DNA of 61,775 bases, filler included. It is 3 parts of 3 records of this genome, joined end to end, with 100 filler letters (N's around TTAATTAATTAA, not from the genome) between each part and the next. Parts side by side here need not be neighbours in the genome. Positions count along the whole stretch, not along the records: positions 1 to 31,470 come from DRR378314_370; 2 more parts are not named here. One strand, written 5' to 3'. The notes below the pieces were generated by a model that saw nothing but the letters and a program-made list of their open reading frames with translations, did no database searches and had not been told where the DNA came from. The stretch's first letter is position 1. Every line of letters starts with the position of its first letter. This document shows, piece by piece, positions 1 to 31,470 of this stretch. Position numbers and translations under genes: made by a program.

Positions 1-30
1 CGCTGATGAAACGATCCGTGCAACACAGTC
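1..30. repeat. Left copy of a perfect 30-bp inverted repeat bounding contig 1 (probable inner end of an IS)
   Basis: cgctgatgaaacgatccgtgcaacacagtc (1-30) is the exact reverse complement of 31441-31470; identity stops at 31/31440. Confidence 0.9.
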
Positions 31-63
31 GTGTGGAAGCAATGGAAAGGGTGGGCCGTCGGA

Positions 64-1242
64 TTAGGCTGCGACAGAGTTGTCGGCGGGGGGGGTGACG
101 TGTCCAAGCGCGGTCAGGAAGGTGCGCAGTTTTGCAGCGGTTTCGGCATGTTCCTTTTCCGGCTCGGAATCCGCAACGATTCCCGCCCCGGCAAAGACCT
201 GCGCCCGTGCTCCGTCAATCACCCCGCAGCGCAGCGCCAACGCCCATTCACCATTGCCCTCGGCGTCCATCCAGCCGACGAGACCCGCGTAATAGCCGCG
301 GTCAAAGTTCTCCAGCTCTGCAATTGAGCGTTGCGCCGCTTTCTGCGGCCATCCGCTCACTGCCGGGGTTGGATGCAGCGCATAGGTCAGTTGCATCGGA
401 TTCACCCCTGCCCGCAGGCTTCCGGAGATACGGCTGCCCAGGTGCCAGATTACCGGTGTCTGCACCAGATCGGGTGCCGCAGGCACCGATACGGGGGCGC
501 AATAGCGGCGGAATTGCTCGCCCACGGCGCGGACCACAAGTGTATGCTCGTGCAGATCCTTTTGCGACTGCATGAGCCCGAGGCCTAGCTCGTGATCCAG
601 CTTTGCATCGCTGTGACGCGGGATCGAACCAGCCAGCGGAGCGCTTTCGACCGCGCCGCCTTTACTGCTCAGAACCAGCTCGGGGCTTGCCCCCAGCAAT
701 ACCGGTGCGGGTCCCGCTTTGTGCGTGGGCAGATCCAGTTGGTAGATAAAGGCACCTGGGTTCACGGCACAGAGCTTTTGGTAGATCGCATCGACGTCAA
801 ATGCGGCCTCGGCTTCGGCCACCACCCGACGCGCGAGCACCACCTTATCCACCGCCTCTAGCGAGATCCGGCGCAGCGCCTTGGCCACGGCGGCTCGGAA
901 AATGGGGGAATCCTCACCCTGCAGGCGGATCGGTGTTCGGGCTGCGTCGTCAAGGGCAGCCTCTGCAGCCTCTGGCGCGTTCCAGATCACCTGTTTTGGA
1001 ACAAAGAGATGTGCAGGCTGGCGGCTGTCAAAGGGCACCGCGCCGACCAGGATAGGGCGGGTGTGACCAGCGCGGCGCGCCTTGGTAAAGGCTGTGGTCA
1101 TGGCTTCGGCCACCGAAGCGCCATCCCACTGGTGCACTGAAATCGCCTGCTGCACGCCCTTCGTCTCAAGCCGGTAGCGTGGCGTTTGGAACCGGAAGAG
1201 CGTGGGTCGCGCTGTCACTACCGGGTGTTCCTGATCCATCAT
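64..1242 (-). CDS. Isochorismate synthase (EntC/DhbC-like MST enzyme)
   Basis: Motifs DKVVLAR, LLGASPELVL, PLAGS, KDLHEH, WHL, LHPTPAVSG, RGYYAG, FAGAGIV, ETAAK. ATG at 1242 follows the [11 protein letters not shown], so the ORF-track extension to 1380 is not used. Confidence 0.9.
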   Translation of the reverse strand: MMDQEHPVVTARPTLFRFQTPRYRLETKGVQQAISVHQWDGASVAEAMTTAFTKARRAGHTRPILVGAVPFDSRQPAHLFVPKQVIWNAPEAAEAALDDAARTPIRLQGEDSPIFRAAVAKALRRISLEAVDKVVLARRVVAEAEAAFDVDAIYQKLCAVNPGAFIYQLDLPTHKAGPAPVLLGASPELVLSSKGGAVESAPLAGSIPRHSDAKLDHELGLGLMQSQKDLHEHTLVVRAVGEQFRRYCAPVSVPAAPDLVQTPVIWHLGSRISGSLRAGVNPMQLTYALHPTPAVSGWPQKAAQRSIAELENFDRGYYAGLVGWMDAEGNGEWALALRCGVIDGARAQVFAGAGIVADSEPEKEHAETAAKLRTFLTALGHVTPPADNSVAA

Positions 1243-1290
1243 GTCGAGTCCTTTCTCTAATTGGGGCCCTGTGTTAGCAGGGCGAATAAA

Positions 1291-1313
1291 CAGGTCGAAA
1301 TCGTCCAGATTAA
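1291..1313 (-). promoter_or_regulatory. Candidate operator 1 (imperfect palindrome with GGACG-WWT-N4-CC core) between the divergent ICS and TetR genes
   Basis: Minus strand reads TTAATCTGGACGATTTCGACCTG; it shares its core with the sites at 26509-26532 and 27023-27050. Confidence 0.45.
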
Positions 1314-1414
1314 CGGTGGATAAGGCGTTGAAATCCGCCAAGGGCGTATGGGTTCGAGTTGCCCTCCGGCGGCCTTGCACCGAGAATGTTCTAACGACCG
1401 AAGGGAAGAGCTAG

Positions 1415-2107: not shown

Positions 2108-2213
2108 CACCTGAACGCACTGCGTTTCTATCGTTGTCGTCATGTCATGTGGTCCACAAATTTTGAAACACGGTGTTGCATTTAGCGCTGCGACGGACCC
2201 GGCATTCAGGATT

Positions 2214-2248
2214 GGTGCGGGCTCTTCCCCCTAGGAACAGCCCGCACC
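2214..2248. terminator. Stem-loop between the convergent tetR and NRPS genes (possible bidirectional terminator)
   Basis: GGTGCGGGCT-c-TTCC...GGAA-c-AGCCCGCACC inverted repeat; no clear U-tract. Confidence 0.5.
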
Positions 2249-2281
2249 CTCGCCAACCTGTGCAGCCTTTGGCGGAGCGGA

Positions 2282-5200
2282 TTACCCTGCCGCCGTCGAC
2301 CCCTCCGCGCGGCTCTGCGGAGTGGGAAAGAACCCGCTCTTCCTGAAGTAGGCGATGTAGAGATCCAAGATCTGGGCGCTGATCTCTGGCGGCGCTATTC
2401 CGGTTCCGGCCAGCGCCGCCTCTATCTGATCTTGCCCCAGGGCGGATTCGGAGACGGGACCATCATATTTCTGCATGTGATCCGCCAGCAAAAGCGCCGG
2501 TGCCAATGCGGTATCCCCACGCGCTGCCAAGGACTGCGCGCTTTCTCGCAGCCGTTCCAGCCAAGCCTCAAACGGCAGTTCTTCCAGCTGGTAGCCCGCC
2601 CGGCCCAAAGCCGCGACGATGGCGCTGATACTGGTGCAGCTGCGGTTGGACAGGTGATAGGTCGCCCCGGCCTCGCCGTGTTCAAGCAGAGCAACCATCG
2701 CCCGCGCTACATAATCCACCGGAGCCAACGTCAGCTCATCAGCCTGCAGGCGCGGTGCGGCGCCCAATTGCAGCATGGAGCGGATGAAATACCAAAATCC
2801 CACGCCTGGCCCGCAAGCCCCACTGCGACTATGGCCGCTCACCCGTCCGGGGCGGTGGATTGTCACCGGCAGGCCGGCAGCTATGGCGTTGTGCATCATC
2901 TCTTCGGCGACCCATTTGCTGCGGACATAGCCGTTGGTCTCCACTTCGGCGGCCAAGATCCGGGTGTCCTCGCTGATCGTGGCCGGATTTTCACCCCGCC
3001 GTGAGACCACCGAGGCTGTGGAGACGAAATGCACCGGAACAGCCCGTGCGCCGAGCGTGGCCAGCCGCAGGATCTGCACCGCACCGCCGACATTGGTCGG
3101 GGCCAGATGGGCATAGGGCGCCGCCTCGTTGGTGGCCCCGGCGTTATGCAGGATCAGACCATAGCGGTCTGCAAGCGCCTGGAACGCTGTCGCGCTGAGG
3201 CCGAACCGCTCCTGAGACAAATCCCCGGCAAAGACCGTAAGGCGTTGTGCAAACCGTTCCTGCCAGAGCCCGTAGCCCTGCATCGCGGCACGCAAGCGTT
3301 GCGCGGCCGCCGCATCATCCGGTGCCCGCACCATACACTCCACCGCCAGCTGCGTTGTGGTCAGCAATTCCGCAAGCAAATGCGCCCCGAGGAACCCGGC
3401 TGCACCGGTCAGGAACAGAGGGCGGGCGCCGCTCAGATCCGGTTGAGCGGCCGGTGGACAAGGCAGATCCGTCGGCAATGCCGCATCGGCCTCCATCTGC
3501 CGCAAGAGTTCCGCTTCCGCCTGTCCCTCGGCCTGGTCCTGTGCGGCAGCCGATGGCGCCAACGCCGCCGCCAGCGCTGCCGGATTGGGGTGGTCGTAGA
3601 TCTGTCGTACGTTGATCTCGGTCTCCAGACTATCACGCAGCAGCCCCACCAGACGCACCGTCAGCAGCGAATGGCCTCCAGCTTCGAAGAAGTCCTCGAG
3701 CCGCCCCACCTCGCTGCGGTCCAATACCTGCGCAAATGCCGCGCAGATCCGGGCCTCCAGTTCGGTTTCGGGCGCGGAGCATCCCGCCTCAGAGGCCGGC
3801 TCTTCGGGTTCGGGCAACGCCGCAACGTCCAGCTTTCCGTTTTGAGTTCGCGGCAGATCCGCCACATAGACCAGCGCGGCGGGAACCATGTAGACTGGCA
3901 GTTCGCAGCGCAGGTGGTCTCGCAGCTCGGCTGGCGCCGGGGCGCTCTCGGTGCCGACCACATAGGCCACCAGTTGCAGCTCGCCTGAGCCGGCCGCCCG
4001 TCCGATGACTGCTGCGCGGCTGATCCCCGGATGGGCGACAATAACGTTTTCAATCTCTGCCGGTTCAATCCGATAGCCACGGATCTTCAGTTGGCTATCA
4101 GCGCGGCCAAGGAAATCGATCCGCCCATCCGCCTGCCAGCGGGCCAGATCGCCGGTACGATACAGCCGCTCGCCGGGTGCTCCCGTGGGATGAGCCACAA
4201 ACCGCTCGGCAGTGAGCCCGGGCCGCTGCACATACCCGCGCGCCAGTCCAACCCCGCTCAAATACAGCTCCCCCGTCACCCCGACCGGTGCCGGCAGCAA
4301 CCCCGGCGTCAAAATCATCGCCCGGGTGTTGGCGATAGGATGGCCGACCGAAGGTGTGTCGCTATCAGCCAGATCCGCCCCCAAAGCGTTGATAGTGTAT
4401 TCGGTCGGCCCATAGAGGTTATAGCCGCCGACTCCCGGCGCTTCGTGCAATTGGGTCCAAAGCGCATCGCCCACCGCTTCGCCGCCAAGCGAGACAAAGA
4501 CAACCCCGGTGCCAGCCTGCCCTCGCGGGCGCGGGCGTTCCAGCAGCCCGTGTTCAACCAGATAGGACCCATAGGTCGGGGTCACGTCGAAGGCATCAAT
4601 CTCGGCGGCGTCAAACAGCGTCAGCAGACGATCCGGGTCGCGCCGCAGTTCGTCGCTGATCACATGGACCTCGTGGCCGCTCAGCAGCCACAGAAGTTGC
4701 TCCCAGGAGGCATCAAAGGCAAAGGAAGTGGTATGCGCGATGCGGATCCGCCGCCCGCCCTGCGCCGCCAGCGTTGGCGCAAAAATCTCTTTTTGGTGGT
4801 TCTCAAACATATTGGTGAGCCCGCGATAAGGCACCGCAACCCCCTTAGGCATGCCGGTAGAGCCCGAGGTGAAGATCACATAAGCAAGATGATCTAGCCC
4901 ACCGGGCCGATCAACGTCGGGCCGGGTCTCGGGCTGTGCCGCCAGCGCCGCCTGACTCTCTGCGCTGTCGATCTCTACAATCCGGTAGTCTTTGCAATAG
5001 CTCTCAGGCAGCAGTTCACGCATCGCCGCGGTTGTCAGGATCACCGTCGGCTCGGCCTGATCCAGGACCGCTTCGATCCGCCGCGCTGGGGTTTCCGCGT
5101 CAATCGGCACATAGGCAGCATGGGCAGAGAACACCGCAAATAGGGCCACGATCATTACCTCTGAGCGCGGCAGCAGCAGCGCGACGCTATGTTCGGGAGA

Positions 5201-8200
5201 GACCCCGCGTGCCTGCAGCAGATGCGCCAGCCGGTTGGCTTGCCCCGCCAGTTCGGAAAAGCTCAGCTCAGTTTCTCCTGCCACAACTGCGCGCAACTCG
5301 GGGGTTTTCTCCGCCTGTGCAAACAGCAGGTCGGCAACCGATACGGTGCCATAATCCAGATCCGCCCCGGCGTCCGAGGATGGCAGCAGCGCCGGACAGG
5401 GGCGCAGCGCATCAACCTGCAACAGCGGCACCTGCGGCGCGGCGGCAAAGGCTGCCGCCAGATGCTTGTATGCCGCCAGCAGCGCTTCGGCATGGTCTGG
5501 GCTGACAATATCCCGCCGATACATCAACCTTAAGGTGATTCCCCCGGCGCCGGGAGATACCGCCATGCTGAGCGGGTAGTGGGTGGCATCGCGCACCGTT
5601 GCATCGCCAAACTGCAAGCTGGCCTCGGCGTCCCGGTCAAGTCCAGGCAGGTTCTGCACCGCAAACAAAGTATCAAACAGGGCACTGTGTCCGGCGATCT
5701 GCATCAGCCGCGACAAGGGCACATGAGAATGGTGCAGCGAAGCCGCCTTCTGGCTGTGTAAGGCGCCAAGCGCTTCCAGAACCGTCAACCCGCCATCGGC
5801 CCGCACCCGCGTCGGTACTGTATTGAACATCAGCCCAATGATCTGATCCACGCCGGCAATCTCGGCCGGACGGCCGGAGACCACATTGCCAAAGACCACA
5901 TCACTGCTGCCGCTCATCCGCATCAGCAGCGCAGCCCAAGTAAGCTCCAGCACCGAGCTGAGCGTAGTTGCCCCCCGCCGCGCCAGATCCTGAAGCGCGG
6001 CCATATCCTCAGCTGAGATGCAGGCTTCGCATTCCGCGCTCTGACTCACGCTAGCCTCCAGCCCTTGTGCCGAGGGGTAGAGCAACGTCGGCTGTGCCCC
6101 CGAGAGGATCTCGCGCCAACGGGAGTCCGCGCTGGTCTCATCCTGCGCCTCCAGCCAGCTCAGATACTGCCCGAAGTCCGGCGGCGGCGTCACCGTTTCA
6201 GGCGTTTCGTAAAGGTCGAAGATCAAACGGAACAGCAACCGGATTGACCAGCCGTCAAGCAGGATGTGATGGGCGGTCAGATACAGGTAATGACCACCCT
6301 CCGGGTTTGCATTTCGGGCCAGTGCAAAGCGAAGCAGCGGCGGGTGGGCGGTGTCAAAAACGGCGCCATACTCCGCATCCGCCAGTGCCTGCGCCGCCTG
6401 CGGCGTGTTCGCCTCAACGGCACTAAACGGGATCTCGGCATGGTGAGGGCAGACCTGTACCATCCGCCCCTTCACTTCGGTAAACCCGGCGGTAATATTG
6501 GGGATCATGTCCGCCGCGCGCCGGATCGCGGCATGCAACCGCGACGGGTCAACATGACCGCGCAGGCTCAACCGGGTTTGTGAGATATAGACATCCTGCT
6601 CCCCCGCCTTGGTTCCTGCCGCGTGAAACCGCAGCCCCTGTTGCAAGGGGGACAGAGGATACACCGCCCGCAAAGGACCAAATTGCGCCTCCAGTATGCG
6701 CCGCTGCGAAGGCGCCAGCATCACCTGACCAGCGTCATCCGTGCTTTGCGGTGTCAGCGGGACTGCGGGGACCCCCGCCAGCAGCTCCGGCAGTGAGCGC
6801 TGCCAGATTGCAAGCTGCTGCTCTACCTCTTCTTGCGGCTGCCTTGCCCGCAGCGTCAGCCGTGCCCGTTTGCGATGTAGGCAAATATCGAGACACCAGA
6901 CATGGGGCTCACTCTCTGTGAGGCCACTGTCCGGGACGGCAGACAGAGACGTAACTGCATCTCGATCTCCCCAATCTCCCAGTCGGATCACCAGCCGGTG
7001 CTGTGCCGCGGGCAGCGCATCAAAGGCACCTTCGGTCTCCGGGTGGATGTCCCGCGCCAACTGGTATGCGGTTGCGGCATCACCAGTCATCGCGCCCTCA
7101 GCCCCCAAGCGCAATGCCAGCGCCGCCCGGTGCCGCAAGCCCTCCGCGCCCGCCGACTGACCCTTGCCCTGCGGCGGGATCACTACCGGCAGCAGCCGCC
7201 GACAACAGCCAACCAGCGCCATCCCGGCGGCGGGCAGCGGTGTGCGGTCCCGATCCGGCTCGTCGATATCCAGCCTGAACGGCCCCTCGGTGCCTTTTAG
7301 AGCGGGCAACAGCGCCGCCACCGCATTCGTGCGCAGCGATGTCACAGCGGGCCAATCTGCCAATGCGGGCAATGGGATCTCGATGACAGCCTCGCATGCG
7401 GTACCAGACGTGGCCAACGGCGGATTGATTGTCGGCTGTTCCAGATAATCCAGCCAAGTCTCCGCCAGATCCAGGATCCGCTCCGAGCGCGCAAGGTCCG
7501 CTGTCTGGTTCAACCAGCTGTCATAAGACGCGGGCGCTAGAGGCGGCCGCAGCTGCCCGCAAACACGCAGATCCGACAGGTCGGCAAGCAGGACCGCCCA
7601 GCTTTCCGCATCGATACAGGCTGCAGGGGCACTCAGTACCAAACGGTCCGGACCGGCCAGCCAAGCCTGAAAACGGTCCTGGCTGGTCTCCTCGGGTGAT
7701 GTCGCGACAAACAGCGGGCGGGCCAGCTGCTCCGCCGCTGTCATGACCCGCAACCCATGGTCCTCCACCTGCAAGCGCAGCGCCGGGTGACGCGATAGCG
7801 CCCGCACCAGCGCAGCGGCGATTTCAGGACTTGCAATCTCCGGGCGCAGGGCGATCTCGCGGTGCTCTATCCCTGAAGCCACTGATGCAAGCCCCCGCAG
7901 CAACGCCAGCCCTGGTGCCGATAGCGGTGCCGCGGCCAGATCGCCAAGCTCCGACACCCGCAGTTCAGGGTGATGCAGCATCAAACACAGGGCCGCCGTC
8001 ACCATCGAGAGCAGATCAGCGCTGCTGCTGTCGCTGAACAGATCACTGGCATAAAGCAGCGACAGCCCGATCCGCCCCGCCTCACCTTCATCGTGCAGCA
8101 CAAAGGTCAGGTCGAATTTCGCTTGCGTTTGCCTGGGTTCGGCAACCTGCCAAGTCCGTCCGGCAAAGCGCATCTGCGGCCAAGGGCGACTGGTCGTGAC

Positions 8201-9361
8201 CATGACGTCAAACAGCGGCGTCCGATTGGCTTCACGGCGCGGGTTCAGTCGTTCCACGACCTGTTCAAACGGCACGTCGCGATGGTCGAGCGCCTCCAGC
8301 ATAGCCTCGTTACAGCGCAGCAGGACTGTGTTGAGACTGGGGTCTCCGCTCAGGTCGGCGCGCAGCACAACCGTGTTGGTGAAAAATCCCAGGGTGCCCG
8401 CCAATGCCTGATCCTGCCGCATGTCCACCGGCACCCCGAGGCAGAGATCCGCCCCGGCGCCGGAGCGGGACAGCACCGCTGCCACCGCAGTCTGCATCAT
8501 CACCAGCGGCGACGCCCCCTGACTGCGCGCCGCCTCGCGCAGCTGCGCCGATAGGGTCGCGTCCAGCCACTGACGGTGCTGGGCACCTTTGAAACTGGGT
8601 TCTGCCGGACGCGGCTGATCCAGCGCCACCCCAGTGCCTGTGGGCAAGTCGGCGAGGCGCGCGGCCCAATAGCCCAGCTGGTCGCGCGACAGATGCCCCT
8701 CGGCCAGCCGTTCCTGTTCCCACTGGGCGTAGTCGCTATAGCGCAGCGTATCGGGTTCGCCGCTCTCTGACAGTTCTCCGGCCAGCGCGCGCTCCAAGTC
8801 TCGCAGCAGCGTACCAAAGGAGCCACCGTCCCCGGCGATATGCGGCAGGCACAACACCAGCGCGCAGACCTCGCCGTTCCGATGCACCAGCATCGCTCTC
8901 AGCGACGCTTCCCGGGTCAGGTCAAACACCCTGTCTCGTTCCGCCCTGGCAAAGGCGTCAAGTGCCGATTCCGGGTCCGCGCCGGTCAGCGTATGAGCGG
9001 TGACACCGGGCCAGAGCTCAGGCTCAATCACCTGTTGCGGGTTACCGTCCGCGTCCTGCACATAGCGTGTGCGCAGAATATCGTGGCGCCGGGCCACTTC
9101 GCGCAGCGCCACCTCAAGCCGCGCCTGCGTCAGATCCGGTGCCGCTCCTTCACCCTCCGCGCGGATAACGATGCAAAAGTTATAGGCCGCCCCGTCGGCA
9201 AGCTGCGCCTGATACCACATGCGCAGCTGCGCCGCGGACAGTGGCAGCAACCCGGCCTGGGTTCTGCGTTGTGGGCGGCTGTTGGCCGCGCTGCCGGTTT
9301 GTATGCCTGCGCGGGCCAGTTTCTGTTGCAGCAAACGCTGTTTCGGATCGGTAGATGTCAT
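2282..9361 (-). CDS. Terminal NRPS: C - degenerate E-like - C - A - T - thioester reductase (R)
   Basis: C1 LPHIAGDG; decayed E-like PAACIDAESW; C2 PLSPLQQG/AHHILLDGWS; A YVIFTSGSTGMPKG, FDASWE, NLYGPTE, YRTGDL, NGK; T GGHSLL; R LTGAAGFLG, GYVRSKW, HRPG. Confidence 0.93.
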   Translation of the reverse strand: MTSTDPKQRLLQQKLARAGIQTGSAANSRPQRRTQAGLLPLSAAQLRMWYQAQLADGAAYNFCIVIRAEGEGAAPDLTQARLEVALREVARRHDILRTRYVQDADGNPQQVIEPELWPGVTAHTLTGADPESALDAFARAERDRVFDLTREASLRAMLVHRNGEVCALVLCLPHIAGDGGSFGTLLRDLERALAGELSESGEPDTLRYSDYAQWEQERLAEGHLSRDQLGYWAARLADLPTGTGVALDQPRPAEPSFKGAQHRQWLDATLSAQLREAARSQGASPLVMMQTAVAAVLSRSGAGADLCLGVPVDMRQDQALAGTLGFFTNTVVLRADLSGDPSLNTVLLRCNEAMLEALDHRDVPFEQVVERLNPRREANRTPLFDVMVTTSRPWPQMRFAGRTWQVAEPRQTQAKFDLTFVLHDEGEAGRIGLSLLYASDLFSDSSSADLLSMVTAALCLMLHHPELRVSELGDLAAAPLSAPGLALLRGLASVASGIEHREIALRPEIASPEIAAALVRALSRHPALRLQVEDHGLRVMTAAEQLARPLFVATSPEETSQDRFQAWLAGPDRLVLSAPAACIDAESWAVLLADLSDLRVCGQLRPPLAPASYDSWLNQTADLARSERILDLAETWLDYLEQPTINPPLATSGTACEAVIEIPLPALADWPAVTSLRTNAVAALLPALKGTEGPFRLDIDEPDRDRTPLPAAGMALVGCCRRLLPVVIPPQGKGQSAGAEGLRHRAALALRLGAEGAMTGDAATAYQLARDIHPETEGAFDALPAAQHRLVIRLGDWGDRDAVTSLSAVPDSGLTESEPHVWCLDICLHRKRARLTLRARQPQEEVEQQLAIWQRSLPELLAGVPAVPLTPQSTDDAGQVMLAPSQRRILEAQFGPLRAVYPLSPLQQGLRFHAAGTKAGEQDVYISQTRLSLRGHVDPSRLHAAIRRAADMIPNITAGFTEVKGRMVQVCPHHAEIPFSAVEANTPQAAQALADAEYGAVFDTAHPPLLRFALARNANPEGGHYLYLTAHHILLDGWSIRLLFRLIFDLYETPETVTPPPDFGQYLSWLEAQDETSADSRWREILSGAQPTLLYPSAQGLEASVSQSAECEACISAEDMAALQDLARRGATTLSSVLELTWAALLMRMSGSSDVVFGNVVSGRPAEIAGVDQIIGLMFNTVPTRVRADGGLTVLEALGALHSQKAASLHHSHVPLSRLMQIAGHSALFDTLFAVQNLPGLDRDAEASLQFGDATVRDATHYPLSMAVSPGAGGITLRLMYRRDIVSPDHAEALLAAYKHLAAAFAAAPQVPLLQVDALRPCPALLPSSDAGADLDYGTVSVADLLFAQAEKTPELRAVVAGETELSFSELAGQANRLAHLLQARGVSPEHSVALLLPRSEVMIVALFAVFSAHAAYVPIDAETPARRIEAVLDQAEPTVILTTAAMRELLPESYCKDYRIVEIDSAESQAALAAQPETRPDVDRPGGLDHLAYVIFTSGSTGMPKGVAVPYRGLTNMFENHQKEIFAPTLAAQGGRRIRIAHTTSFAFDASWEQLLWLLSGHEVHVISDELRRDPDRLLTLFDAAEIDAFDVTPTYGSYLVEHGLLERPRPRGQAGTGVVFVSLGGEAVGDALWTQLHEAPGVGGYNLYGPTEYTINALGADLADSDTPSVGHPIANTRAMILTPGLLPAPVGVTGELYLSGVGLARGYVQRPGLTAERFVAHPTGAPGERLYRTGDLARWQADGRIDFLGRADSQLKIRGYRIEPAEIENVIVAHPGISRAAVIGRAAGSGELQLVAYVVGTESAPAPAELRDHLRCELPVYMVPAALVYVADLPRTQNGKLDVAALPEPEEPASEAGCSAPETELEARICAAFAQVLDRSEVGRLEDFFEAGGHSLLTVRLVGLLRDSLETEINVRQIYDHPNPAALAAALAPSAAAQDQAEGQAEAELLRQMEADAALPTDLPCPPAAQPDLSGARPLFLTGAAGFLGAHLLAELLTTTQLAVECMVRAPDDAAAAQRLRAAMQGYGLWQERFAQRLTVFAGDLSQERFGLSATAFQALADRYGLILHNAGATNEAAPYAHLAPTNVGGAVQILRLATLGARAVPVHFVSTASVVSRRGENPATISEDTRILAAEVETNGYVRSKWVAEEMMHNAIAAGLPVTIHRPGRVSGHSRSGACGPGVGFWYFIRSMLQLGAAPRLQADELTLAPVDYVARAMVALLEHGEAGATYHLSNRSCTSISAIVAALGRAGYQLEELPFEAWLERLRESAQSLAARGDTALAPALLLADHMQKYDGPVSESALGQDQIEAALAGTGIAPPEISAQILDLYIAYFRKSGFFPTPQSRAEGSTAAG

Positions 9362-16402: not shown

Positions 16403-18828
16403 GCCACCGGCTCCGACGCAGCGTCTTCGGCTTCTTCCGCCGCCAGCAGCGCTGCAACTTCTTCGTCGGTCATATTGCGGATCTCCAGCGTCAGTGACGC
16501 AATCTCGCAAATGCGAGCGCCATCATCGCCGCGGCGCAGCACGTCGGCCAGCTCGGCGACGGTGGGGTAGCGAAACAGCGCCCGCAAAGTGATTGCGTCA
16601 CTGTCCAAGTCGTCTTGCAGCCGTGCCACCACCCGAGTTGCCAGCAGGCTGTCGCCTCCAAGCGCGATAAACTCTTCGTTGACGCCGATCGATGCCAGTC
16701 CCAGCACCTCTGCCCAGGTTTCGGCCATGAGCTGCTCCAGATCATCGCGCGGAGCCACCAGATCCTGGTTGCCGCATTGCTCGGCAATCCCATGCGCTAG
16801 TGCAGTGTCGTCGATCCGGCCATCCTCTGTACGGGGCAGCGCCTCTGTCACCACGACGCGATGTGGCAGCAGATGGGCAGGCGTGCGGCGGGCCAGTTCC
16901 GCCCGCAGTGTCTTGCCGGTGACATCCTCAGTCCCAGGCTCCAGCACCACCGCAGCGGCAAATCCCAATTCTGCCTCAGCAATAACGGCGACCTCCGCAA
17001 CCCGAGGATCAGTGCGTAGCGCTGCCGCAACATCCTGCGGCCAGACCTTGACGCCATGCCGGATCCCGAAGTCCCCGTCGCTGCCCAGAACTTCCACCGC
17101 GCCGGTCTCATCGGCCCGTGCCCATTGCGGTGCAGTGGAACTCTCTGGCCCGTCCAAGTGGCCGACCACAAACGCGGGACAGTCATTGCCATTCCGATCC
17201 AGGATCCGCACCAATTGTCCGTCCAGCCATCGCTCCGGCGCCCCGGTTTCCAGTGGGCGCAACGGTAGCTGCCAGCTTCCGGGGTGGTCGATCACCGCCG
17301 TAAGCCATTGTTCAAACTGGGCAAACATATCGTCAGCCACATTATTGGCCAGCGCATCCTCGCGAATGTCCCAATTGACCAGCAGGCCGCCTTCGAACTC
17401 GGTCACCTGCGCGTCCAGCAACACCTGCGGCCCTTGCGAAATCACCCAGACCGGGCGCCCAACGCAGGCGCTGACCTCCGGCGCAAACAACTCGCCCAGC
17501 CCCAGCGCACTGGTAAAGACCACCGGTGCCAGCACCGTTTCGCCGCGCACCCGGCCCAGCTCGCGCAGCACGTCAAGCCCACTAAAGGCGGCATGGGCCG
17601 CGTCCTCATGCATCTGTGCCTGCATCTCCCGGACTCGCCCGGCAAAGCTCTGCTCCGTGCGCAGGTCCACCTCTAGCATCACCGAGCTGGAAAAATCCCC
17701 GGCGATCCGGTCAATTTCCGGGTGCAAGGCAGGCCGGTCGAACATCGGCACATTCAACAGGAAATGATCGGTAGCGCTCCAGCGCCCGACCACTTCTGCC
17801 AGCACCGCCGCAACGGTCATAGCCGGCGTGGCGCCCTGCGCGCGTGCCACCTGCGCAAGTGCCGCTTTACGCGCGGGCGTCAGCCACATGTGCCGCCGCG
17901 CCACGCGCGGCGCGGCCGCCGCCTCCGGGCTCAGCAAACGCTCGGGCAGCACCGGCGATCCCGGCAGGCTGCCCATCCGCTCGGCCCAGGCTGCAGCGGC
18001 GTCCTTTGCCTTGGCCGCCGTCTGCGCCGCAACGCCGATCAGATAATCCCGATAGCTCAACTCCAGCGTCGGCAGCTCCCGGCCTGGTTCCTGGTACAGC
18101 GCCACCAGATCCGCCATCAACAGGCGATAGCTCACCGCATCGGCCGCAATCATGTCCATGTCGAGATGCAGCCGCGTCGCGCCCTCTGGCAGAAGGCTCA
18201 AGGCAGCTGTAAACACCGCGCCGCTTTCCACATCAAGTGACTGATGCGAATACCCTTCGCGCAGTGCATCAAGTCGCGCCTGACGCTCGGCCTCGGGCAC
18301 TTCGCGCAGATCATGCACCACAAAGGGCACCGGCAAATCGTTCGCCACCTCCTGATGACCATCTGCCGTCACCCTGCTGCGCAGCGTCTCATGACGCTGC
18401 ATCAGCCGGGCAAAGGCAGTGCGTAACCGCTCTGGCTCCAGTGCGCAACCGCCGTCGTGATCGAATTCCACATACAGATGCGCGGCCACCCCGCCGAGCC
18501 GCTGACCGGGGCTGCGCCCGACCCAATAGGCATGTTGCATCACCCCCAGCGGGGTTGGCACGTCCGCCGGTGCCGGGACCAGGCGAACCGCTTCGGCCGC
18601 CGCCGCCGACCCCAGCAGGCGGTTCCAAGCCATCAGCGTCGGCTCCAACGCGAGGCTGGCGAAATCCACTTCGATCCGGTCCCGCCTGAGCCGGTTTACC
18701 AGCCGCAGCAGACCGATGGAATCAAGCCCCGCCTCAAACAGGTTTTCCTTCGGATCGAGTTTCTCCGCCTCGCTGCCAAGAAAGTCATGGAGCGCGGCGC
18801 GCAACAGAGTGTCGTACGATTGGGTCAT
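16399..18828 (-). CDS. NRPS aryl carrier - heterocyclization (Cy) - truncated A remnant - PCP (MbtB-like)
   Basis: ArCP GLDSI; Cy MQHAYWVGR, DMIAADAVS (DxxxxD), PVVFTS, SQGPQVLLD; only the C-terminal part of an A domain remains (LPRTEDGRID); PCP GGDSLLA. Confidence 0.9.
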   Translation of the reverse strand: MTQSYDTLLRAALHDFLGSEAEKLDPKENLFEAGLDSIGLLRLVNRLRRDRIEVDFASLALEPTLMAWNRLLGSAAAAEAVRLVPAPADVPTPLGVMQHAYWVGRSPGQRLGGVAAHLYVEFDHDGGCALEPERLRTAFARLMQRHETLRSRVTADGHQEVANDLPVPFVVHDLREVPEAERQARLDALREGYSHQSLDVESGAVFTAALSLLPEGATRLHLDMDMIAADAVSYRLLMADLVALYQEPGRELPTLELSYRDYLIGVAAQTAAKAKDAAAAWAERMGSLPGSPVLPERLLSPEAAAAPRVARRHMWLTPARKAALAQVARAQGATPAMTVAAVLAEVVGRWSATDHFLLNVPMFDRPALHPEIDRIAGDFSSSVMLEVDLRTEQSFAGRVREMQAQMHEDAAHAAFSGLDVLRELGRVRGETVLAPVVFTSALGLGELFAPEVSACVGRPVWVISQGPQVLLDAQVTEFEGGLLVNWDIREDALANNVADDMFAQFEQWLTAVIDHPGSWQLPLRPLETGAPERWLDGQLVRILDRNGNDCPAFVVGHLDGPESSTAPQWARADETGAVEVLGSDGDFGIRHGVKVWPQDVAAALRTDPRVAEVAVIAEAELGFAAAVVLEPGTEDVTGKTLRAELARRTPAHLLPHRVVVTEALPRTEDGRIDDTALAHGIAEQCGNQDLVAPRDDLEQLMAETWAEVLGLASIGVNEEFIALGGDSLLATRVVARLQDDLDSDAITLRALFRYPTVAELADVLRRGDDGARICEIASLTLEIRNMTDEEVAALLAAEEAEDAASEPVA

Positions 18829-22268: not shown

Positions 22269-22269
22269 A

Positions 22270-24546: not shown

Positions 24547-24774
24547 TCATGCGCCCGCACGCATTTGCTCGCGCAACGTCCTTGGACGCATGTCGGTCCA
24601 GGTCTCGTCGATCCAATCAAGCACCGCCTGCCGCGGCGCCCCATCCGGCCCGCCAAAGGCGATCCGCCACCCCTCGGGCACCGCATGGAACACCGGCCAA
24701 AGAGAATATTGCTCTTCATCGTTGACAAGAGCGAAGAACGCCGCGTCCTCGGCATCAAACGGGTTGCTGCTCAT
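24547..24774 (-). CDS. mbtH: MbtH-like protein
   Basis: NPFD, LVNDEEQYSLWP, VPEGW, WTDMRP, with all three conserved Trp residues. Confidence 0.97.
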   Translation of the reverse strand: MSSNPFDAEDAAFFALVNDEEQYSLWPVFHAVPEGWRIAFGGPDGAPRQAVLDWIDETWTDMRPRTLREQMRAGA

Positions 24775-27088: not shown

Positions 27089-29227
27089 ATGTTCAGAAAG
27101 GCGAGTGTGTTGACCGGGTCGATCCTAGCCGTCACCACACAGTTCTGTCCTTTTTGGGGGAAAGCGGCGGCGCAGGAGCTAGTCATCGAACTTGATCCGA
27201 TTACGGTACAGCGCGATGTAGCGGATACCTCCTCGTCATACGCCCTTCCGGAAATGCGATCAGCCACTAAGACAGACACGCCAGTGGTGGAAACACCCCA
27301 AGCCTTGACTGTGCTGACGCGCAAACAGTTTGACGACCAGAACACCCAGACCGTCGGGCAAGCGTTGCGCTATACCGCCGGGGTTTTGTCGGAGGTGGAT
27401 TCCTCCACTCGCTATGACAGTGTGTACCTGCGCGGCTTTGGCGGCTTTGGGACCTCCTCATCCTTTGTGTCATCACTGGACGGGCTGCCGCTACCGCGAG
27501 GGCAGGCCTTTGCGCAATCTTCAGTAGATCCGTTTCTGCTGGATCGGGTGGACGTGTTGAAAGGGCCTTCGGCGCTGCTTTATGGTCAAAGCAGCCCGGG
27601 TGGATTGGTAAATATGGTCAGCCGTGCACCAGACGGCAGTTCCCGAGGTGAAGCGCGGCTGGAGTTTGGCAGCCACGACAGGGTTATGGTCGGTGGCGCA
27701 CAACAGGGGGTGCTGAACGGGTCCGGCACGCTGCAATACAGCATCATTGGCCTGGCTCGGAATGCGGGCAGCCGTTACGACGATGTCGAGGAAACGCGGT
27801 TTTCGGTTGCGCCGACGCTGGTATGGACACCAACAGAGCAAACCCGCTATACATTTGGGGTCTATTTCCAGCGTGACCCGGACGGGGGGTATTTCAACTC
27901 CACCTTTCCGCGCAGCTTGGCCCCTGCAGTTGCCGGGTATCTGGACCGTGACCTGAATATGGGCGATCCCGGATTTGACCGTTTTGACCGTACCCAATGG
28001 GGCATTTCGGCGGGCGTTGAGCATGCCCTGAACACCAACCTCACCCTGCGTTCGAAAATGCGTTACAGCGGCGTTGATGTCGATATGGACGCAATTCAGC
28101 ATGCCGGTTTCATCAGCCCCTCCGGGGTATTGAGCCGTATGGCGGTACAATCGCGCGAAGATGTCCGCGGCTTTGCATGGGATACGAACCTTGAATACGA
28201 GGTCAGTACCGGCGCTGTAGAGCATCGGATACTGTTGGGGGCGGACGTCAGCCGCAATGATAGCGATTGGCAGTACAACTTTGCAATGGCGCCCGGGCTG
28301 GAGGTGACCAACCCCAGCTACTCCAGGGTGACGGGTCCCTTCATGGCACTGACCGACAACCATCAGGTCACCAACCAAAAAGGGATTTACCTGAGCGATC
28401 AGATGGCTATCGGCAAATTCCGCACGGTTCTGGGTTTGCGGCATGACTGGATCGAAACCGAAAACGAGAACCGGCTTGCGAATTCGACCAGCGAGCAGAG
28501 TTCCGATCAGACCTCCTATCGGGCGGCGGTTCTTTATCAGTTCGATAATGGCGTTGCGCCCTATGTCAGCTATGCGACCTCGTTCCAGCCGGAAATCGGT
28601 GTCAGTGAAAGCGGCAGCGCCTTTGTGCCAACTGAATCCGAACAATATGAGATCGGGGTGAAGTATCGGCCCGAGAGCTTTGATGCGCTGTTCACGATGG
28701 CGGCCTTCGACCTGACCCAGACCAACGTCAAGACGCCCGGGTCCGCGCCCAACACCTTCATCCAGACTGGCGAGATCCGCTCGCGCGGGCTGGAGTTCGA
28801 GATGCGCGGACAGGTGACCCAGCGGTTGGAGCTTATCGCTGCCTTCACGTTGCTGGATACGGAAGTCACCAAATCCACGACCAGCAGCATTATCGGCAAC
28901 AGGCCGCAGGCGGTGCCTGAGCATTTTGGCTCGATCTGGGCGAACTATGCTTTTGACAACGGCCTGGAACTGGGCGGCGGGGTGCGTTTTGTCGGATCCA
29001 GCTATGGAGACGATGCCAATACGCTTAAGGCGGACAGCTATGTTCTGGCAGATCTGGCAATGCGCTACGATCTGAGTCGACTGGGTGGTTTCTTCCAAGG
29101 CACAGAGGCGACGCTGAATGTGCGGAACCTGCTTGATGAAACCTATTATTCCAGCTGCAGCTTCAACGTGTATTGCCAGTACGGCGAGGGCCGCAGCATC
29201 ACCGCCGGGTTGCGCAAGACATGGTAA
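27089..29227 (+). CDS. TonB-dependent siderophore receptor (FhuA-like)
   Basis: Signal peptide, LDPITV TonB box, ATKTDTP..ETPQ, ALRYTAG, RVDVLKGPSALLYG..SPGG, QYEIGVKY, RSRGLEFE, NLLDETY, C-terminal W. Confidence 0.96.
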   Translation: MFRKASVLTGSILAVTTQFCPFWGKAAAQELVIELDPITVQRDVADTSSSYALPEMRSATKTDTPVVETPQALTVLTRKQFDDQNTQTVGQALRYTAGVLSEVDSSTRYDSVYLRGFGGFGTSSSFVSSLDGLPLPRGQAFAQSSVDPFLLDRVDVLKGPSALLYGQSSPGGLVNMVSRAPDGSSRGEARLEFGSHDRVMVGGAQQGVLNGSGTLQYSIIGLARNAGSRYDDVEETRFSVAPTLVWTPTEQTRYTFGVYFQRDPDGGYFNSTFPRSLAPAVAGYLDRDLNMGDPGFDRFDRTQWGISAGVEHALNTNLTLRSKMRYSGVDVDMDAIQHAGFISPSGVLSRMAVQSREDVRGFAWDTNLEYEVSTGAVEHRILLGADVSRNDSDWQYNFAMAPGLEVTNPSYSRVTGPFMALTDNHQVTNQKGIYLSDQMAIGKFRTVLGLRHDWIETENENRLANSTSEQSSDQTSYRAAVLYQFDNGVAPYVSYATSFQPEIGVSESGSAFVPTESEQYEIGVKYRPESFDALFTMAAFDLTQTNVKTPGSAPNTFIQTGEIRSRGLEFEMRGQVTQRLELIAAFTLLDTEVTKSTTSSIIGNRPQAVPEHFGSIWANYAFDNGLELGGGVRFVGSSYGDDANTLKADSYVLADLAMRYDLSRLGGFFQGTEATLNVRNLLDETYYSSCSFNVYCQYGEGRSITAGLRKTW

Positions 29228-30297
29228 GCCGCCGCAACCTGCTGACACTGGGCGCCGCGTTTTTGTCGCTCCCGAGCTTGGGCCGAGCGAGTGACCATGC
29301 GGTCGTGGACGTGCTGGGGCGGGAGGTTACACTTTCGGCCCAGCCGCAGCGGATTGTCCTGCTGGATGGCAGCGATCTCTTTACCGTGGCGGCGCTCCTG
29401 CCGGATCCGGCGGACCGTGTGGTCGGCTGGGCGAGCGCAGCCCGGCTTGACCTTGGCGCAAAAGCCGGGCTGCTCGGCGCGGACTTTCCCGAGGTCGGGC
29501 GTATTTCGCCAGAAACAGTGTCGGTCGAAGCGATCCTCGCTCTGAACCCGGATCTGGTGGTGTCGAGCGCCTATATGCTGCCGCCAGAGGGCAGCGTGCT
29601 TGCAGAGCATTTTGCACAGGCAGGTATCCCGGTTGCCTGGTCCAGCGGCCATGACCGCGCATTTGGCCCCCAAGAGAAACTGCGCCGTGCAATGGGGTTC
29701 TGGGGGGCTGTACTGGGACAGGAAGCCCGCGCCGCGGAGCTTGCAGCCTGGGGTGCAGCGCACTTTGCCCGCCTTGCGACCCGGTCGCTGCCGCAGCAGC
29801 TGCCACGGGTCTATATGGAAGTGATGACCACCTATGACAGCTGCTGCTGGGCCGCGGGGCAATCCTTCTGGTCAGATCTGTTTGCCCTCGCAGGGGGCGA
29901 CCTGATGACCGAGGCCGCAGGCTGGAGCCAGCAGTTAAGTGCCGAGGGGCTGCTCGCCCTCAATCCCGAAGTCTATATCGCCACGGGGGGCAATTTTGCC
30001 CCCGCCCGGCAACCAGGAATCGCCCCGGGGCTGGATACCGAGGCCGCGCGCGCTGGTCTGAAACAGGCGGCGGCGCGGCAGGGCCTCGTCCATACCGATG
30101 CGGTGCGTACGGGCCGGGTGCATGGCATCTGGTCGGGGTTGATTTCCTCACCGCTGCTGCTGGTGGTGCTAACCGAATGCCTGGCGCGCTGGCTGCACCC
30201 CGGACAAGCCGCCGACATAGATCCCGCCGCGACACTGGCCGAGCTGAACACCTATTTCCCAGCCCCTTTGCCGGGGCCGATGTGGGTGACGATTTAA
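29221..30297 (+). CDS. Iron-siderophore ABC transporter periplasmic binding protein with Tat signal
   Basis: MVSRRNLL Tat motif, DVLGREVTL..PQRIVL, SVEAILALNPDLV, CC motif, AVRTGRVHGIW; overlaps the receptor stop. Confidence 0.88.
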   Translation: MVSRRNLLTLGAAFLSLPSLGRASDHAVVDVLGREVTLSAQPQRIVLLDGSDLFTVAALLPDPADRVVGWASAARLDLGAKAGLLGADFPEVGRISPETVSVEAILALNPDLVVSSAYMLPPEGSVLAEHFAQAGIPVAWSSGHDRAFGPQEKLRRAMGFWGAVLGQEARAAELAAWGAAHFARLATRSLPQQLPRVYMEVMTTYDSCCWAAGQSFWSDLFALAGGDLMTEAAGWSQQLSAEGLLALNPEVYIATGGNFAPARQPGIAPGLDTEAARAGLKQAAARQGLVHTDAVRTGRVHGIWSGLISSPLLLVVLTECLARWLHPGQAADIDPAATLAELNTYFPAPLPGPMWVTI

Positions 30298-30318
30298 CCT
30301 GAACGCAAGAGGTGCAGG

Positions 30319-31416
30319 ATGTTTGAAACCCGGGCCAGGATTATGTTCCCAGATATCGACCGGTATTTTGCCACTATTGTGGATGCGATCAATGCCCATG
30401 GCTGGCCAGTGGTGCGGCAGGGCACACGCACCGCCTGGGCCGGAGCAGAACGCGAGGTGACGTTGCGGGCCAGCACCGATGAACTGGCAGTCAGCATCTG
30501 TTGCGAAGACCGGGCGGCGCTCAACGCGATGCGCTACTCGGTGACCAGCCTGATTGACTTCAACGCCCGCGCGGCGGCGCCGGTGATCACTTGGCGCGGA
30601 GACGAAGTCGGCGAGACATTGCCACCGGATTTGCGGCTGTTTGTCGTCAGCAGCACCGAAATGATCACTCCAAAAATGCGCCGCATCTGGTTTTCCGGCC
30701 CCGACGTAGCGCGCTATGACACGTTGGAGCATCTGCATGCGCGGCTGTTGTTCAAACGCGGGCGCGGGGTGCCAGAAGCTTGGCCGCATATGACCGATAC
30801 CGGCCGCATTCGCTGGCCCGGCGGGAAGGCGGAGCTCGACACGCGGGTCTATACTGTGCGCAAAGTGGATTCCGCCGCCGGACGGCTGGCGGTAGATTTT
30901 TTTCTGGGCGATCACAGCGGCCCGGCCACAACTTGGGCTCGGGAGGCCGCGCCGGGCGACGGTGTCGGATTTATCGGCCCGGCCGCGCATGGCCAAGTGC
31001 GGGCGCCTTTCCAGGTGTTTGTAGCGGATGAAACCGGCCTGCCGGGGGTGTTGCGCTGCATGGAGGCGCTGCCGCTGGAAACCCGCGGGGTTGCGCTGAT
31101 CGAAGTCGACGGTCCCGAAGACCGGCAGGAGGTGGCGACACCTGCCAGCATGGTGCTGCGTTGGCTCTACCGGAATGGCGCCGCACCGGGAACCACGCAG
31201 CTGCTGGAACAGGCCTTTGCCGAGATCGACTGGCCCGAAGATCCGACGACAGCGGGATTCTGGTGCGGAGCCGAGCGACAGACCTTTGTCCGCCTGTGGC
31301 GGGCAGTGCGGGCGCGCGGATTGCTCAACGGGCAGATCGTTGCTTTTGCCCATTGGCGCCGAGGGATGAGCGAGCCGGAGATTGCCGCGGCGGGCAGCAG
31401 CTCGGTCCGAAGCTGA
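30319..31416 (+). CDS. Siderophore-interacting protein (ViuB/SIP, FAD-binding ferric reductase) with an N-terminal extension
   Basis: ITPKMRRI, RVYTVR, GPATTWA..A.PGD, ADETGLP, WCGAE, HWRRG. Confidence 0.92.
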   Translation: MFETRARIMFPDIDRYFATIVDAINAHGWPVVRQGTRTAWAGAEREVTLRASTDELAVSICCEDRAALNAMRYSVTSLIDFNARAAAPVITWRGDEVGETLPPDLRLFVVSSTEMITPKMRRIWFSGPDVARYDTLEHLHARLLFKRGRGVPEAWPHMTDTGRIRWPGGKAELDTRVYTVRKVDSAAGRLAVDFFLGDHSGPATTWAREAAPGDGVGFIGPAAHGQVRAPFQVFVADETGLPGVLRCMEALPLETRGVALIEVDGPEDRQEVATPASMVLRWLYRNGAAPGTTQLLEQAFAEIDWPEDPTTAGFWCGAERQTFVRLWRAVRARGLLNGQIVAFAHWRRGMSEPEIAAAGSSSVRS

Positions 31417-31440
31417 TCCGTCCGAAGCTGGCATTAAATG

Positions 31441-31470
31441 GACTGTGTTGCACGGATCGTTTCATCAGCG
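31441..31470. repeat. Right copy of the perfect 30-bp inverted repeat bounding contig 1
   Basis: gactgtgttgcacggatcgtttcatcagcg is the reverse complement of 1-30; the contig ends here. Confidence 0.9.

Follow-up and report, generated by a model that had tools for sequence, protein, structure and literature searches.

The siderophore segment of contig 1 is strain-specific, being present here and not in the closest relative, and it is very likely flanked by two insertion sequence (IS) copies in inverted orientation, in a Tn903-like layout. Judging from its sequence, the 30-mer at each end of the contig comes from the terminus of an insertion sequence of the IS903 group (IS5 family). Whether a segment bracketed by IS copies moves as a unit is a separate question.

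Terminal inverted repeat of contig 1

The window, i.e., the whole stretch of DNA analyzed (61,775 nucleotides, filler included), consists of three contigs, separated from one another by artificial N44-TTAATTAATTAA-N44 spacers, with contig 1 occupying positions 1–31470. As reported in the first-pass annotation, bases 1–30 are the exact reverse complement of bases 31441–31470. The repeat is located at both physical ends of contig 1, which stops at the outer edges of the repeats, and the tight spacing described for the terminal genes also held: the stop codon of the isochorismate synthase ICS (TAA, minus strand, 64–66) is 33 bp (31–63) from the left repeat, and that of the siderophore-interacting reductase SIP (TGA, 31414–31416) is 24 bp (31417–31440) from the right repeat. 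The match ends at exactly 30 bp: the bases that follow are different, and the two inner flanks agree at only 9 of 30 positions. When up to 3 mismatches were allowed, the 30-mer matched just two sites in the window, both ends of contig 1; at least two matches were found in none of 100 shuffles. Contigs 2 and 3 had no such terminal repeat, and the inner 9-mers (GTGTGGAAG and CATTAAATG) did not occur again within the window. The features of contig 1 are summarized in Table 1.

Table 1. Features of contig 1 (positions in the window)
Feature	Position	Strand	Basis or remark
Left stub of flanking IS	1..30	-	Terminal inverted repeat, IS5-family/IS903-group, based on terminus matches; outward from cargo on minus strand reads GACTGTGTTGCACGGATCGTTTCATCAGCG; contig end
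Spacer, 33 bp, IS tip to ICS stop	31..63	.	Homology of relatives begins at base 31
Isochorismate synthase ICS, 438 aa	64..1380	-	Pfam Chorismate_bind; TIGR00543, 264.5 bits (cut-off 224.75)
TetR-family regulator, 230 aa	1415..2107	+	PF00440 and PF14246
NRPS, 2359 aa: two condensation stretches, A and T domains, terminal reductase domain	2282..9361	-	
PLP-dependent Orn/Lys/Arg-type decarboxylase, 490 aa	9358..10830	-	PF01276
NRPS C-A-T, 1400 aa	10820..15022	-	
Stand-alone condensation protein	15029–16510	-	Within 15029..18828
C/T-T protein	16399–18828	-	
Amino-acid adenylation protein	18825–20456	-	TIGR01733, 418.5 bits
Aryl-acid (DHB-AMP-ligase-like) adenylase	20619–22310	-	TIGR02275, 584.9 bits, below cut-off of 723.55
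Alpha/beta hydrolase	22270–23130	-	
Salicylate synthase	23127–24758	-	TIGR03494, 370 bits (cut-off 325.15)
Lys/Orn-type N-monooxygenase, 540 aa	24811..26433	-	PF13434
TonB-dependent siderophore receptor	27089–29227	+	Uptake operon 27089..31416
Periplasmic binding protein	29173–30297	+	Uptake operon
Siderophore-interacting reductase SIP	30319–31416	+	Uptake operon
Spacer, 24 bp, SIP stop to IS tip	31417..31440	.	
Right stub of flanking IS	31441..31470	+	Same IS end as left, inverted orientation; contig end

The 30 bp are not a complete repeat; they are the stub, i.e., the retained part, of a longer, collapsed repeat. Their exact length was presumably set by the assembler rather than by biology, through the collapse of a multi-copy IS (30 = k-1 for k = 31). 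A contig-terminal inverted repeat of k-1 bases may be regarded as the footprint that an assembler leaves of a collapsed IS. The ends of contig 2 are single-copy in G001, the nearest genome, and carry no repeat stub, which counts against the k-1 reading.

A location exactly at the contig ends and a length of k-1 for k = 31 also fit a technical artefact, whether the sequence of an adapter or linker, the product of a chimeric or hairpin read, or an error in the assembly graph, and the 30-mer was found in no other genome searched. However, natural IS termini match it at 18 of 19 bases, an independent Logan contig of run X1 also joins the 30-mer to the right inner flank (CATTTAATGCC...), and the homology of relatives from two other studies breaks exactly at the inner edge of the repeat. 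The 30-mer is not known to resemble any common sequencing adapter. We consider an artefact to be very improbable.

Probable identity of the flanking IS

The IS903-group assignment had been guessed from the 30-mer, and it was supported by matching termini and by the transposases adjoining them in plasmid relatives. A blastn search of the 30-mer against 72,556 plasmids matched 14 records, seven of which (six from Microvirga and one from Roseomonas) matched from query base 1–3. These matches are individually non-significant (E = 0.4–5); what speaks for an IS is that they are located at IS termini. We inspected four of the seven records: L002, a 1097-bp IS5-family element on the Roseomonas mucosa plasmid NZ_CP147882, and L003, L098, and L099, on Microvirga plasmids. 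At all four loci, an IS5-family transposase gene or gene fragment reads toward the motif and ends approximately 40–60 nt before it. In these relatives and in L124, described below, approximately 40–60 nt separate the transposase stop from the end of the element. The two intact transposases exceeded the NF033579 cut-off of 140, with 277.5 and 291.4 bits, contained PF13737 and PF01609, and were 38% identical to that of IS903B over 96% of their length, while L003 and L099 had only transposase fragments beside the same motif.

The window 30-mer agreed with the right ends of the Roseomonas and Microvirga elements at 18/19 and 21–24/30 positions and with the terminus of L124, an element from the same genus as G001, at 16/19 and 23/30. 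The similarity to these five elements amounts to 16–18 of the first 19 bases and 21–24 of 30 overall, and the sequences diverge past base 19–22. L124 itself has close counterparts on Leisingera plasmids, IS5-family elements with 95–97% identity. Agreement over the first 19 bases was lower with the 313-aa-type elements of the genus (14–15/19) and with the IS903B terminus read from L100 (12/19). The window tip is GGCTTTGTTG-like and has the conserved TGTTGCA/TGTTGAA core of IS903-group terminal repeats, and the plasmid and genus relatives are 1050–1099 bp long with a 313–325-aa DDE transposase. The window terminus belongs to a sub-group with 321–325-aa transposases (GNNNGTGTTGCACGGATC) and not to IS903 itself (12/19). 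In this case, 30 bp sufficed to type an IS. The comparisons disagree on which IS end points toward the cargo: among the plasmid relatives, the 30-mer is most similar to the transposase-3' end, but in L124, it is most similar to the 5' end.

A 22-mer of the window IS had no match in genome_contigs or metagenome_contigs; allowing up to 3 mismatches, neither the 30-mer in 101 genomes of the genus nor a 26-mer in 401 genomes of the family gave a match. Based on these searches, the window IS is an undescribed variant. IS903-group transposases as such are common in the host genus, occurring in 46 of the 101 genomes at E≤1e-20, with 36 of these above the cut-off.

The termini had also been likened to those of the IS6 family, and copies of IS6/IS26-family elements could form a pseudo-compound transposon. 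The core TGTTGCA is common to the 30-mer and to the IS6-family terminus quoted in the first-pass annotation, and the GGCTCTGTTGCACAAA termini of the IS903-group copies in the genus show that the tips of both families look alike. However, none of the 14 plasmid records matching the 30-mer was annotated with an IS6-family transposase; among five inspected loci, four had an IS5/IS903-group transposase at the motif and the fifth was an internal match in IS481. Identities of 18/19 and 24/30 were reached with IS5_2-type elements only. We consider the IS6 suggestion to be extremely unlikely.

Evidence for two flanking copies

Both junctions use the same IS end, which argues for two IS copies in inverted orientation. 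The first-pass annotation had proposed such a pair; the identical inverted tips at both ends of contig 1 fit it, and full-length copies are an inference from the 30 bp seen of each. The window contains no transposase, outer IS end, or flanking host DNA. That IS copies bracket the segment at all is considered very likely. The orientation would not follow if the two ends of the IS were identical over at least 30 bp; the ends differ in every relative examined.

The stubs may instead belong to an IS903-group derivative without a transposase (MITE) or to a solo remnant of the terminal repeat of such an element. Several copies of such a sequence would suffice to break the assembly, the terminal 30 bp alone is seen, and degenerate relatives exist, as illustrated by the transposase fragments beside the motif in L003 and L099. 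On the other hand, the element is intact in two of the four inspected relatives and in many copies of the genus. The two stubs also show no difference along their 30 bp, as would fit copies that were active recently. We regard a MITE or remnant as improbable.

Gene content

The genes of contig 1 fill positions 64–26433 and 27089–31416. Pfam and NCBIfam searches identified the components of an NRPS siderophore cluster: NRPS modules, aryl-acid supply and activation, an N-hydroxylase, a receptor, a binding protein, and a reductase. No permease, ATPase, or PPTase was found among these genes. The locus had been described as a self-contained module, which was not borne out: contig 1 lacks the ABC permease, ATPase, and PPTase that are present in the nearest related cluster.

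This cluster belongs to an uncultured Rhodobacteraceae bacterium (G501, the record behind L012). It has homologues of all 15 cargo proteins, with 54–72% amino acid identity, and shares with the window the order of the central block from the first NRPS to the N-monooxygenase. Compared with the window, the TetR-ICS block and the receptor-binding protein-SIP block both lie in the opposite orientation. The additional genes in G501 adjoin TetR-ICS and encode a PPTase, another binding protein, a FecCD permease, and an ABC ATPase; contig 1 has no counterpart to any of the four. On the left side of the G501 cluster, betaine-utilization genes come next, and no IS was found at its borders within the stretches read.

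Distribution in related genomes

G001 is the nearest genome, at the same-species level, and agrees with contig 2 along 20 kb at 99%. It contained neither the contig 1 segment nor the 30-mer and gave no match to NF033579. The insertion point of the missing cargo and IS was not located in G001 because the outer flanks lie outside contig 1. ICS was detected in none of the 101 genomes of the genus at E≤1e-60.

Metagenome relatives (X2 and X3) were approximately 95% identical to the segment, and the IS tip was absent from them at base 30/31. In X2 record 9 (3406 nt, 126 differences), positions 893–3406 align to window positions 31–2544, and 892 unlike bases stand where the window has the IS tip. 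In the examined part of the X3 metagenome contig, homology also begins at window base 31. A near-identical copy of the unit in another context was not found in plasmids, genome_contigs, metagenome_contigs, or the 101 genomes of the genus.

Proposed origin of the bracketed segment

We propose that contig 1 represents a horizontally acquired, strain-specific siderophore segment, both ends of which run 30 bp into the same IS end. The bracketed DNA lacks the PPTase, ABC permease, and ATPase of the nearest related cluster, and a binding protein probably does not make a full uptake system when its permease is missing. We therefore consider it most likely that the IS copies landed in, or trimmed, a larger island that had already been acquired, or that they sit in an IS-rich accessory replicon; the contig edges would then simply mark the nearest IS copies. 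We give this explanation as a whole, history included, an even chance of being correct.

The other history of interest is that of a true Tn903-like composite, in which a pair of IS903-group elements in inverted orientation picked up the cluster in a donor, after which the resulting unit of approximately 33.6 kb transposed into this strain by way of its two outer IS ends and can move again. Precedents may be found in Vibrio, for which PMC5294582 describes a Tn903-like composite with inverted IS903 copies (pirAB-Tn903 of Vibrio plasmids), and in IS1-flanked aerobactin, reported in PMC4707298 to transpose in experiments. The same IS end at both inner junctions, the short distances (33 and 24 bp) at which the cargo is cut beyond its intact terminal genes, the absence of both the cargo and the IS type from the 99%-identical G001, and the relatives of approximately 95% identity that lack the IS tip at base 30/31 are all consistent with a composite. 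However, no outer ends, target-site duplication, or transposase were seen, the unit was found in no second context in the plasmid, genome, and metagenome collections searched, and the permease, ATPase, and PPTase of G501 are missing from the cargo. In addition, the frequency of composite transposition drops steeply with length, and a unit of approximately 34 kb would move rarely. We regard this history as possible, though doubtful. The layout is transposon-like, and mobilization through the two outer IS ends or IS-IS recombination could in principle occur; this is not the likeliest history. The position of the IS copies in short spacers just beyond intact terminal genes is at least as compatible with a compact mobile unit shaped by selection as with chance insertion.

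It is only tentatively suggested that a Tn903-type composite of approximately 34 kb, built from a previously unseen variant of the IS903 group, transports an entire NRPS siderophore pathway and its receptor between marine alphaproteobacterial genomes. If true, this would be among the largest IS903-group composites known, and a 'public-good' iron-scavenging trait would spread without a plasmid or ICE. A mobile segment would mean that a simple IS pair can shuffle a complete NRPS siderophore pathway among environmental alphaproteobacteria, with a bearing on the rise of siderophore producers and cheaters in aquatic communities. IS-flanked siderophore loci have already been documented (aerobactin with IS1 or ISKpn78), and the conceptual gain is, therefore, small.

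Comparison with known systems

The window and Tn903 have the same IS group, termini resembling GGCTTTGTTG..., and the same IS end facing inward on both sides. In contrast to the small resistance or toxin cassettes of Tn903 and pirAB-Tn903, the cargo here comprises 31.4 kb of NRPS siderophore genes. The target-site duplication of the IS903 group is 9 bp according to PMC5294582; relative to Tn903, only 30 bp of each IS is visible here, and the 9-bp duplication and outer ends would lie beyond the contig.

Aerobactin loci resemble the window in that siderophore synthesis and receptor genes are placed between two copies of one IS and are interpreted as composite transposons. These are the inverted IS1 copies of pColV-K30 and related plasmids (PMC4707298) and the truncated ISKpn78 copies flanking the iuc3 composite transposon (PMC9997749). 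The flanks are IS1 or IS3/IS407 (ISKpn78) rather than IS903-group, and the loci are NRPS-independent operons of approximately 16 kb or less on enterobacterial plasmids, whereas the window cargo is of the NRPS type. The IS1 aerobactin unit is reported in PMC4707298 to be experimentally transposable.

Terminal inverted repeat of contig 1

Rather than a single molecule, the window comprises three contigs with an artificial spacer (N44-TTAATTAATTAA-N44) between each and the next; no feature should be read across the joins (Table). The two ends of contig 1 are exact reverse complements of each other over 30 bp, and no further copy occurs in the window at up to 3 mismatches; two or more matches of the 30-mer were obtained in 0 of 100 shuffles. 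The repeat ends at exactly 30 bp, with the inner flanks beyond it agreeing at 9 of 30 positions, and reads GACTGTGTTGCACGGATCGTTTCATCAGCG from the siderophore genes outward. It is separated by 33 bp from the stop codon of the isochorismate synthase (ICS) gene on the left and by 24 bp from that of the siderophore-interacting reductase (SIP) gene on the right. The repeat comparison and the gene coordinates agree in every detail with what the first-pass annotation, made from the sequence alone, had described. A terminal repeat was not found on contig 2 or contig 3.

In de Bruijn assembly, a contig that enters a collapsed multi-copy repeat retains k-1 bases of that repeat. The length of the stub, 30, equals k-1 at k = 31. 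A Logan contig (k = 31) of sequencing run X1 covers bases 1-30 and then continues with 131 nt of the right-hand inner flank (CATTTAATGCC...). The terminal 30-mers of contig 2 are single-copy in G001, the nearest genome, and carry no repeat stub, which speaks neither for nor against the idea that the 30-bp stub arose from k = 31.

Table. Features of the window and genes of contig 1, annotated with Pfam and NCBIfam
Feature	Position	Remarks
Contig 1	1-31470	
Contig 2	31571-51695	
Contig 3	51796-61775	
Artificial spacers	31471-31570; 51696-51795	
Left repeat copy	1-30	
Right repeat copy	31441-31470	
ICS-TetR block	64-2107	
Isochorismate synthase (ICS)	64-1380	stop codon 64-66
TetR regulator		in ICS-TetR block
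NRPS		2359 aa, terminal reductase
Orn/Lys-type decarboxylase		
NRPS		1400 aa
Free condensation protein		
C/T-T protein		
Two adenylases		one DHB-AMP-ligase-like
Alpha/beta hydrolase		
Salicylate synthase	23127-24758	370 bits, over cut-off
N-monooxygenase		
TonB-dependent receptor, binding protein, SIP reductase	27089-31416	opposite strand; SIP stop codon 31414-31416

Identity of the 30-mer

A sensitive blastn search of 72,556 plasmid records with the 30-mer returned 14 records, each non-significant when taken singly (E 0.4-5). The alignment begins at query base 1-3 in seven of them (6 Microvirga and 1 Roseomonas mucosa), two Agrobacterium vitis records match over bases 1-27 (24/27), and the remaining five (H7, H11-H14) are 17-19-nt internal matches to unrelated genes, starting from query bases 11-14. 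We inspected the loci of four of the seven Microvirga and Roseomonas records and of one of the two A. vitis records.

In all four inspected Microvirga and Roseomonas loci, the motif forms the extreme end of an IS5-family element. A transposase gene, or a fragment of one, reads toward it, with its 3' end approximately 40-60 nt before the motif. The R. mucosa locus (L002) matches exactly (18/18), and its element of 1097 bp agrees with the window at 16 of 19 positions at the other end. The Microvirga ossetica locus (L098) carries an intact 321-aa transposase at the motif, and the other two loci (L003 and L099) carry only transposase fragments. The intact transposases at the motif reached 277.5 and 291.4 bits against NCBIfam NF033579, which has a cut-off of 140; they contain Pfam PF13737 and PF01609 and align with IS903B at 38% identity over 96% of their length; IS17 and ISPam1 also align. 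An annotated copy of IS903B has the ends GGCTTTGTTGAATAAATC..., with 57 nt from the stop codon to the end, and 12 of its first 19 bases are common with the window tip. These results support the assignment of the contig 1 terminal 30-mer as the tip of an IS5-family, IS903-group element, which was one of two suggestions in the first-pass annotation. The other suggestion, an IS6-type element, was not borne out by the transposases at the motif, and we regard it as the least probable of the explanations considered for the flanking repeat.

An IS481 element was also considered as the identity of the 30-mer on the basis of the A. vitis match (E = 5). This candidate was rejected as a chance match because the matching bases (L001 2501-2526, plasmid CP146241) are inside an IS481-family transposase gene, in its 3' coding part and 11 nt before the terminal repeat, and the terminal-repeat arms of that element are elsewhere (L001 1553-1580 and 2537-2564). 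The 15-mer CGGATCGTTTCATCA, which is common to the window 30-mer and the A. vitis IS481 gene, is notable even though the match was judged to be due to chance.

The presence of the same IS end at both inner junctions implies two IS copies in inverted orientation, given that DNA is double-stranded, whatever assembler was used. The sole exception would be an element with two ends identical over at least 30 bp, and this was not so in any relative examined. We infer two full inverted IS copies in a Tn903-like layout; whether the inward-facing IS end is on the 5' or 3' side of the transposase is ambiguous. Both intact transposases and fragments accompany the motif in the inspected loci, and it appears improbable that the flanking repeat is a MITE or a solo-end repeat. 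The IS copies very probably bracket the siderophore segment.

Search for the same element in other genomes

An exact 22-mer of the repeat was absent from genome_contigs and metagenome_contigs. Allowing up to 3 mismatches, neither G001 nor any of 101 genomes in its genus contained the 30-mer, and a 26-mer was missing from all 401 genomes searched in the family, which represent 400 genera. Of the 101 genomes, 46 encode IS903-group transposases at E≤1e-20 (L101-L130), and in 36 of these a match exceeds the cut-off; a single genome has as many as 12 matches, and G001 has no NF033579 match. The termini of these elements are GGCTTTGTTGCACAAATCG in the type with a 313-aa transposase (approximately 1050 bp) and GNNCGTGTTGCACGGATC in the type with a 324-325-aa transposase (approximately 1080-1100 bp). 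The terminus closest to the window 30-mer in the genus, at locus L124, agrees at 23 of 30 positions, and Leisingera plasmids carry IS5-family elements with 95-97% identity to the one at L124.

Strain-specific segment and its left breakpoint

The siderophore segment is strain-specific. Contig 2 is 99% identical to G001 over 20 kb, and contig 1 has no counterpart in G001 beyond short matches to NRPS motifs. None of the 101 genomes of the genus contains a close ICS homologue (E≤1e-60), and a near-identity search of plasmids with bases 1-25000 of contig 1 revealed only two 54-bp NRPS matches. An ICS scan of metagenome_contigs did not reveal a close relative; among 27 loci, the two best matches, at 57% and 48% identity, cover only C-terminal parts of the query (residues 329-425 and 297-425, respectively), and longer ones do not exceed 43%. 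The G+C contents of contigs 1 and 2 are 63.8% and 61.6%, and the tetranucleotide correlation is 0.93 between the two contigs and 0.97-0.98 between the halves within each. Word depth in X1 over contig 1 ranges from 83 to 161.

A 3406-nt contig of X2, an aquatic metagenome, aligns its bases 893-3406 with window positions 31-2544 at 95% identity (126 differences) and has 892 unlike bases where the window carries the IS tip. In a contig of a separate study (X3), the aligned part likewise begins at base 31. Since homology begins at the same base in both relatives, base 30/31 marks a biological breakpoint, with an IS junction that is derived relative to X2 and X3. We regard an artefactual origin of the flanking repeat as very unlikely.

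Comparison with the nearest related cluster

The nearest related siderophore cluster is that of G501, an uncultured Rhodobacteraceae bacterium (the genome behind L012), in which all 15 of the 15 cargo proteins have homologues at 54-72% identity. In G501, TetR-ICS is adjoined by genes for a PPTase, a second periplasmic binding protein, a FecCD permease, and an ABC ATPase (L012 4797-9073), followed by betaine-utilisation genes. In contrast, contig 1 has no counterpart of these four genes. The absence of the PPTase, permease, and ATPase contradicts the proposal of the first-pass annotation that the 31-kb module is self-contained. Since contig 1 encodes a binding protein without a permease, the partner genes are expected elsewhere, possibly just past an IS copy.

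The ICS-TetR block and the block of the TonB-dependent receptor, binding protein, and SIP are both inverted with respect to the central NRPS block relative to G501 (L012 9113-11185 and L135 14578-18886). The X2 relative has the left arrangement of the window without the IS tip; therefore, at least the left inversion predates the IS junction, and IS-mediated inversion was rejected as its source. The inner breakpoint regions of the inverted blocks contain no IS-end motif.

Siderophore loci between IS copies are already established. IS1-flanked aerobactin on pColV-K30-type plasmids lies between inverted copies and was reported to be experimentally transposable (PMC4707298), iuc3 is a conserved 16.2-kb composite with truncated ISKpn78 on both sides (PMC9997749), and Vibrio plasmids carry Tn903-like composites with inverted IS903 copies, together with 9-bp duplications of single IS copies (PMC5294582). 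For the present segment, the window contains no transposase gene and no outer end of the flanking IS copies, no 9-bp duplication was seen, and a second context of the unit was not found in plasmids, genome_contigs, metagenome_contigs, or the 101 genomes of the genus. We see about an even chance that a larger acquired island or an IS-rich accessory replicon received the IS copies or was trimmed by them, in which case the contig edges would just mark the nearest IS copies. A smaller probability attaches to the unit having entered the strain as a composite transposon and still being one, the mobile cassette proposed in the first-pass annotation. Any novelty would lie in finding an undescribed IS903-group variant together with a 31-kb NRPS cluster in an environmental alphaproteobacterial host; IS903-group composites that carry NRPS clusters may already have been published.

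Siderophore genes

The genes occupy 64-26433 and 27089-31416 of contig 1, which leaves no room for more. Two chorismate-utilising enzymes are encoded, ICS and the salicylate synthase, and neither an isochorismatase nor a 2,3-dihydro-DHB dehydrogenase was found among the contig 1 genes.

The contigs of the X2 relative (approximately 95% identical) skip 163 nt (2854-3018) and 2347 nt (6900-9248) in the large NRPS gene, reflecting either a real difference in domains or modules or the collapse of internal NRPS repeats in k = 31 contigs. The X1 Logan contigs differ from the window by 1-2-nt indels at a dozen places within 3800-19492 (e.g., 3800, 3988, 4293, 5971, 10238, 14621, and 14798). Since the long ORFs of the window are intact, these indels look like errors of the homopolymer type on the side of the X1 contigs and not of the window.

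Contig 3

Contig 3 is unlike a part of the same bacterial genome. Its G+C content is 54.4% (vs 61.6-63.8% in contigs 1 and 2), and its tetranucleotide frequencies correlate with theirs at 0.54-0.58. It matched neither G001 nor plasmids, and no Pfam match was obtained for any of 7 tested ORFs. The contig opens with a (CA)n run and has only 13 ORFs of at least 120 aa in 10 kb; contaminant or eukaryotic DNA is a possible explanation, as is a highly foreign element.
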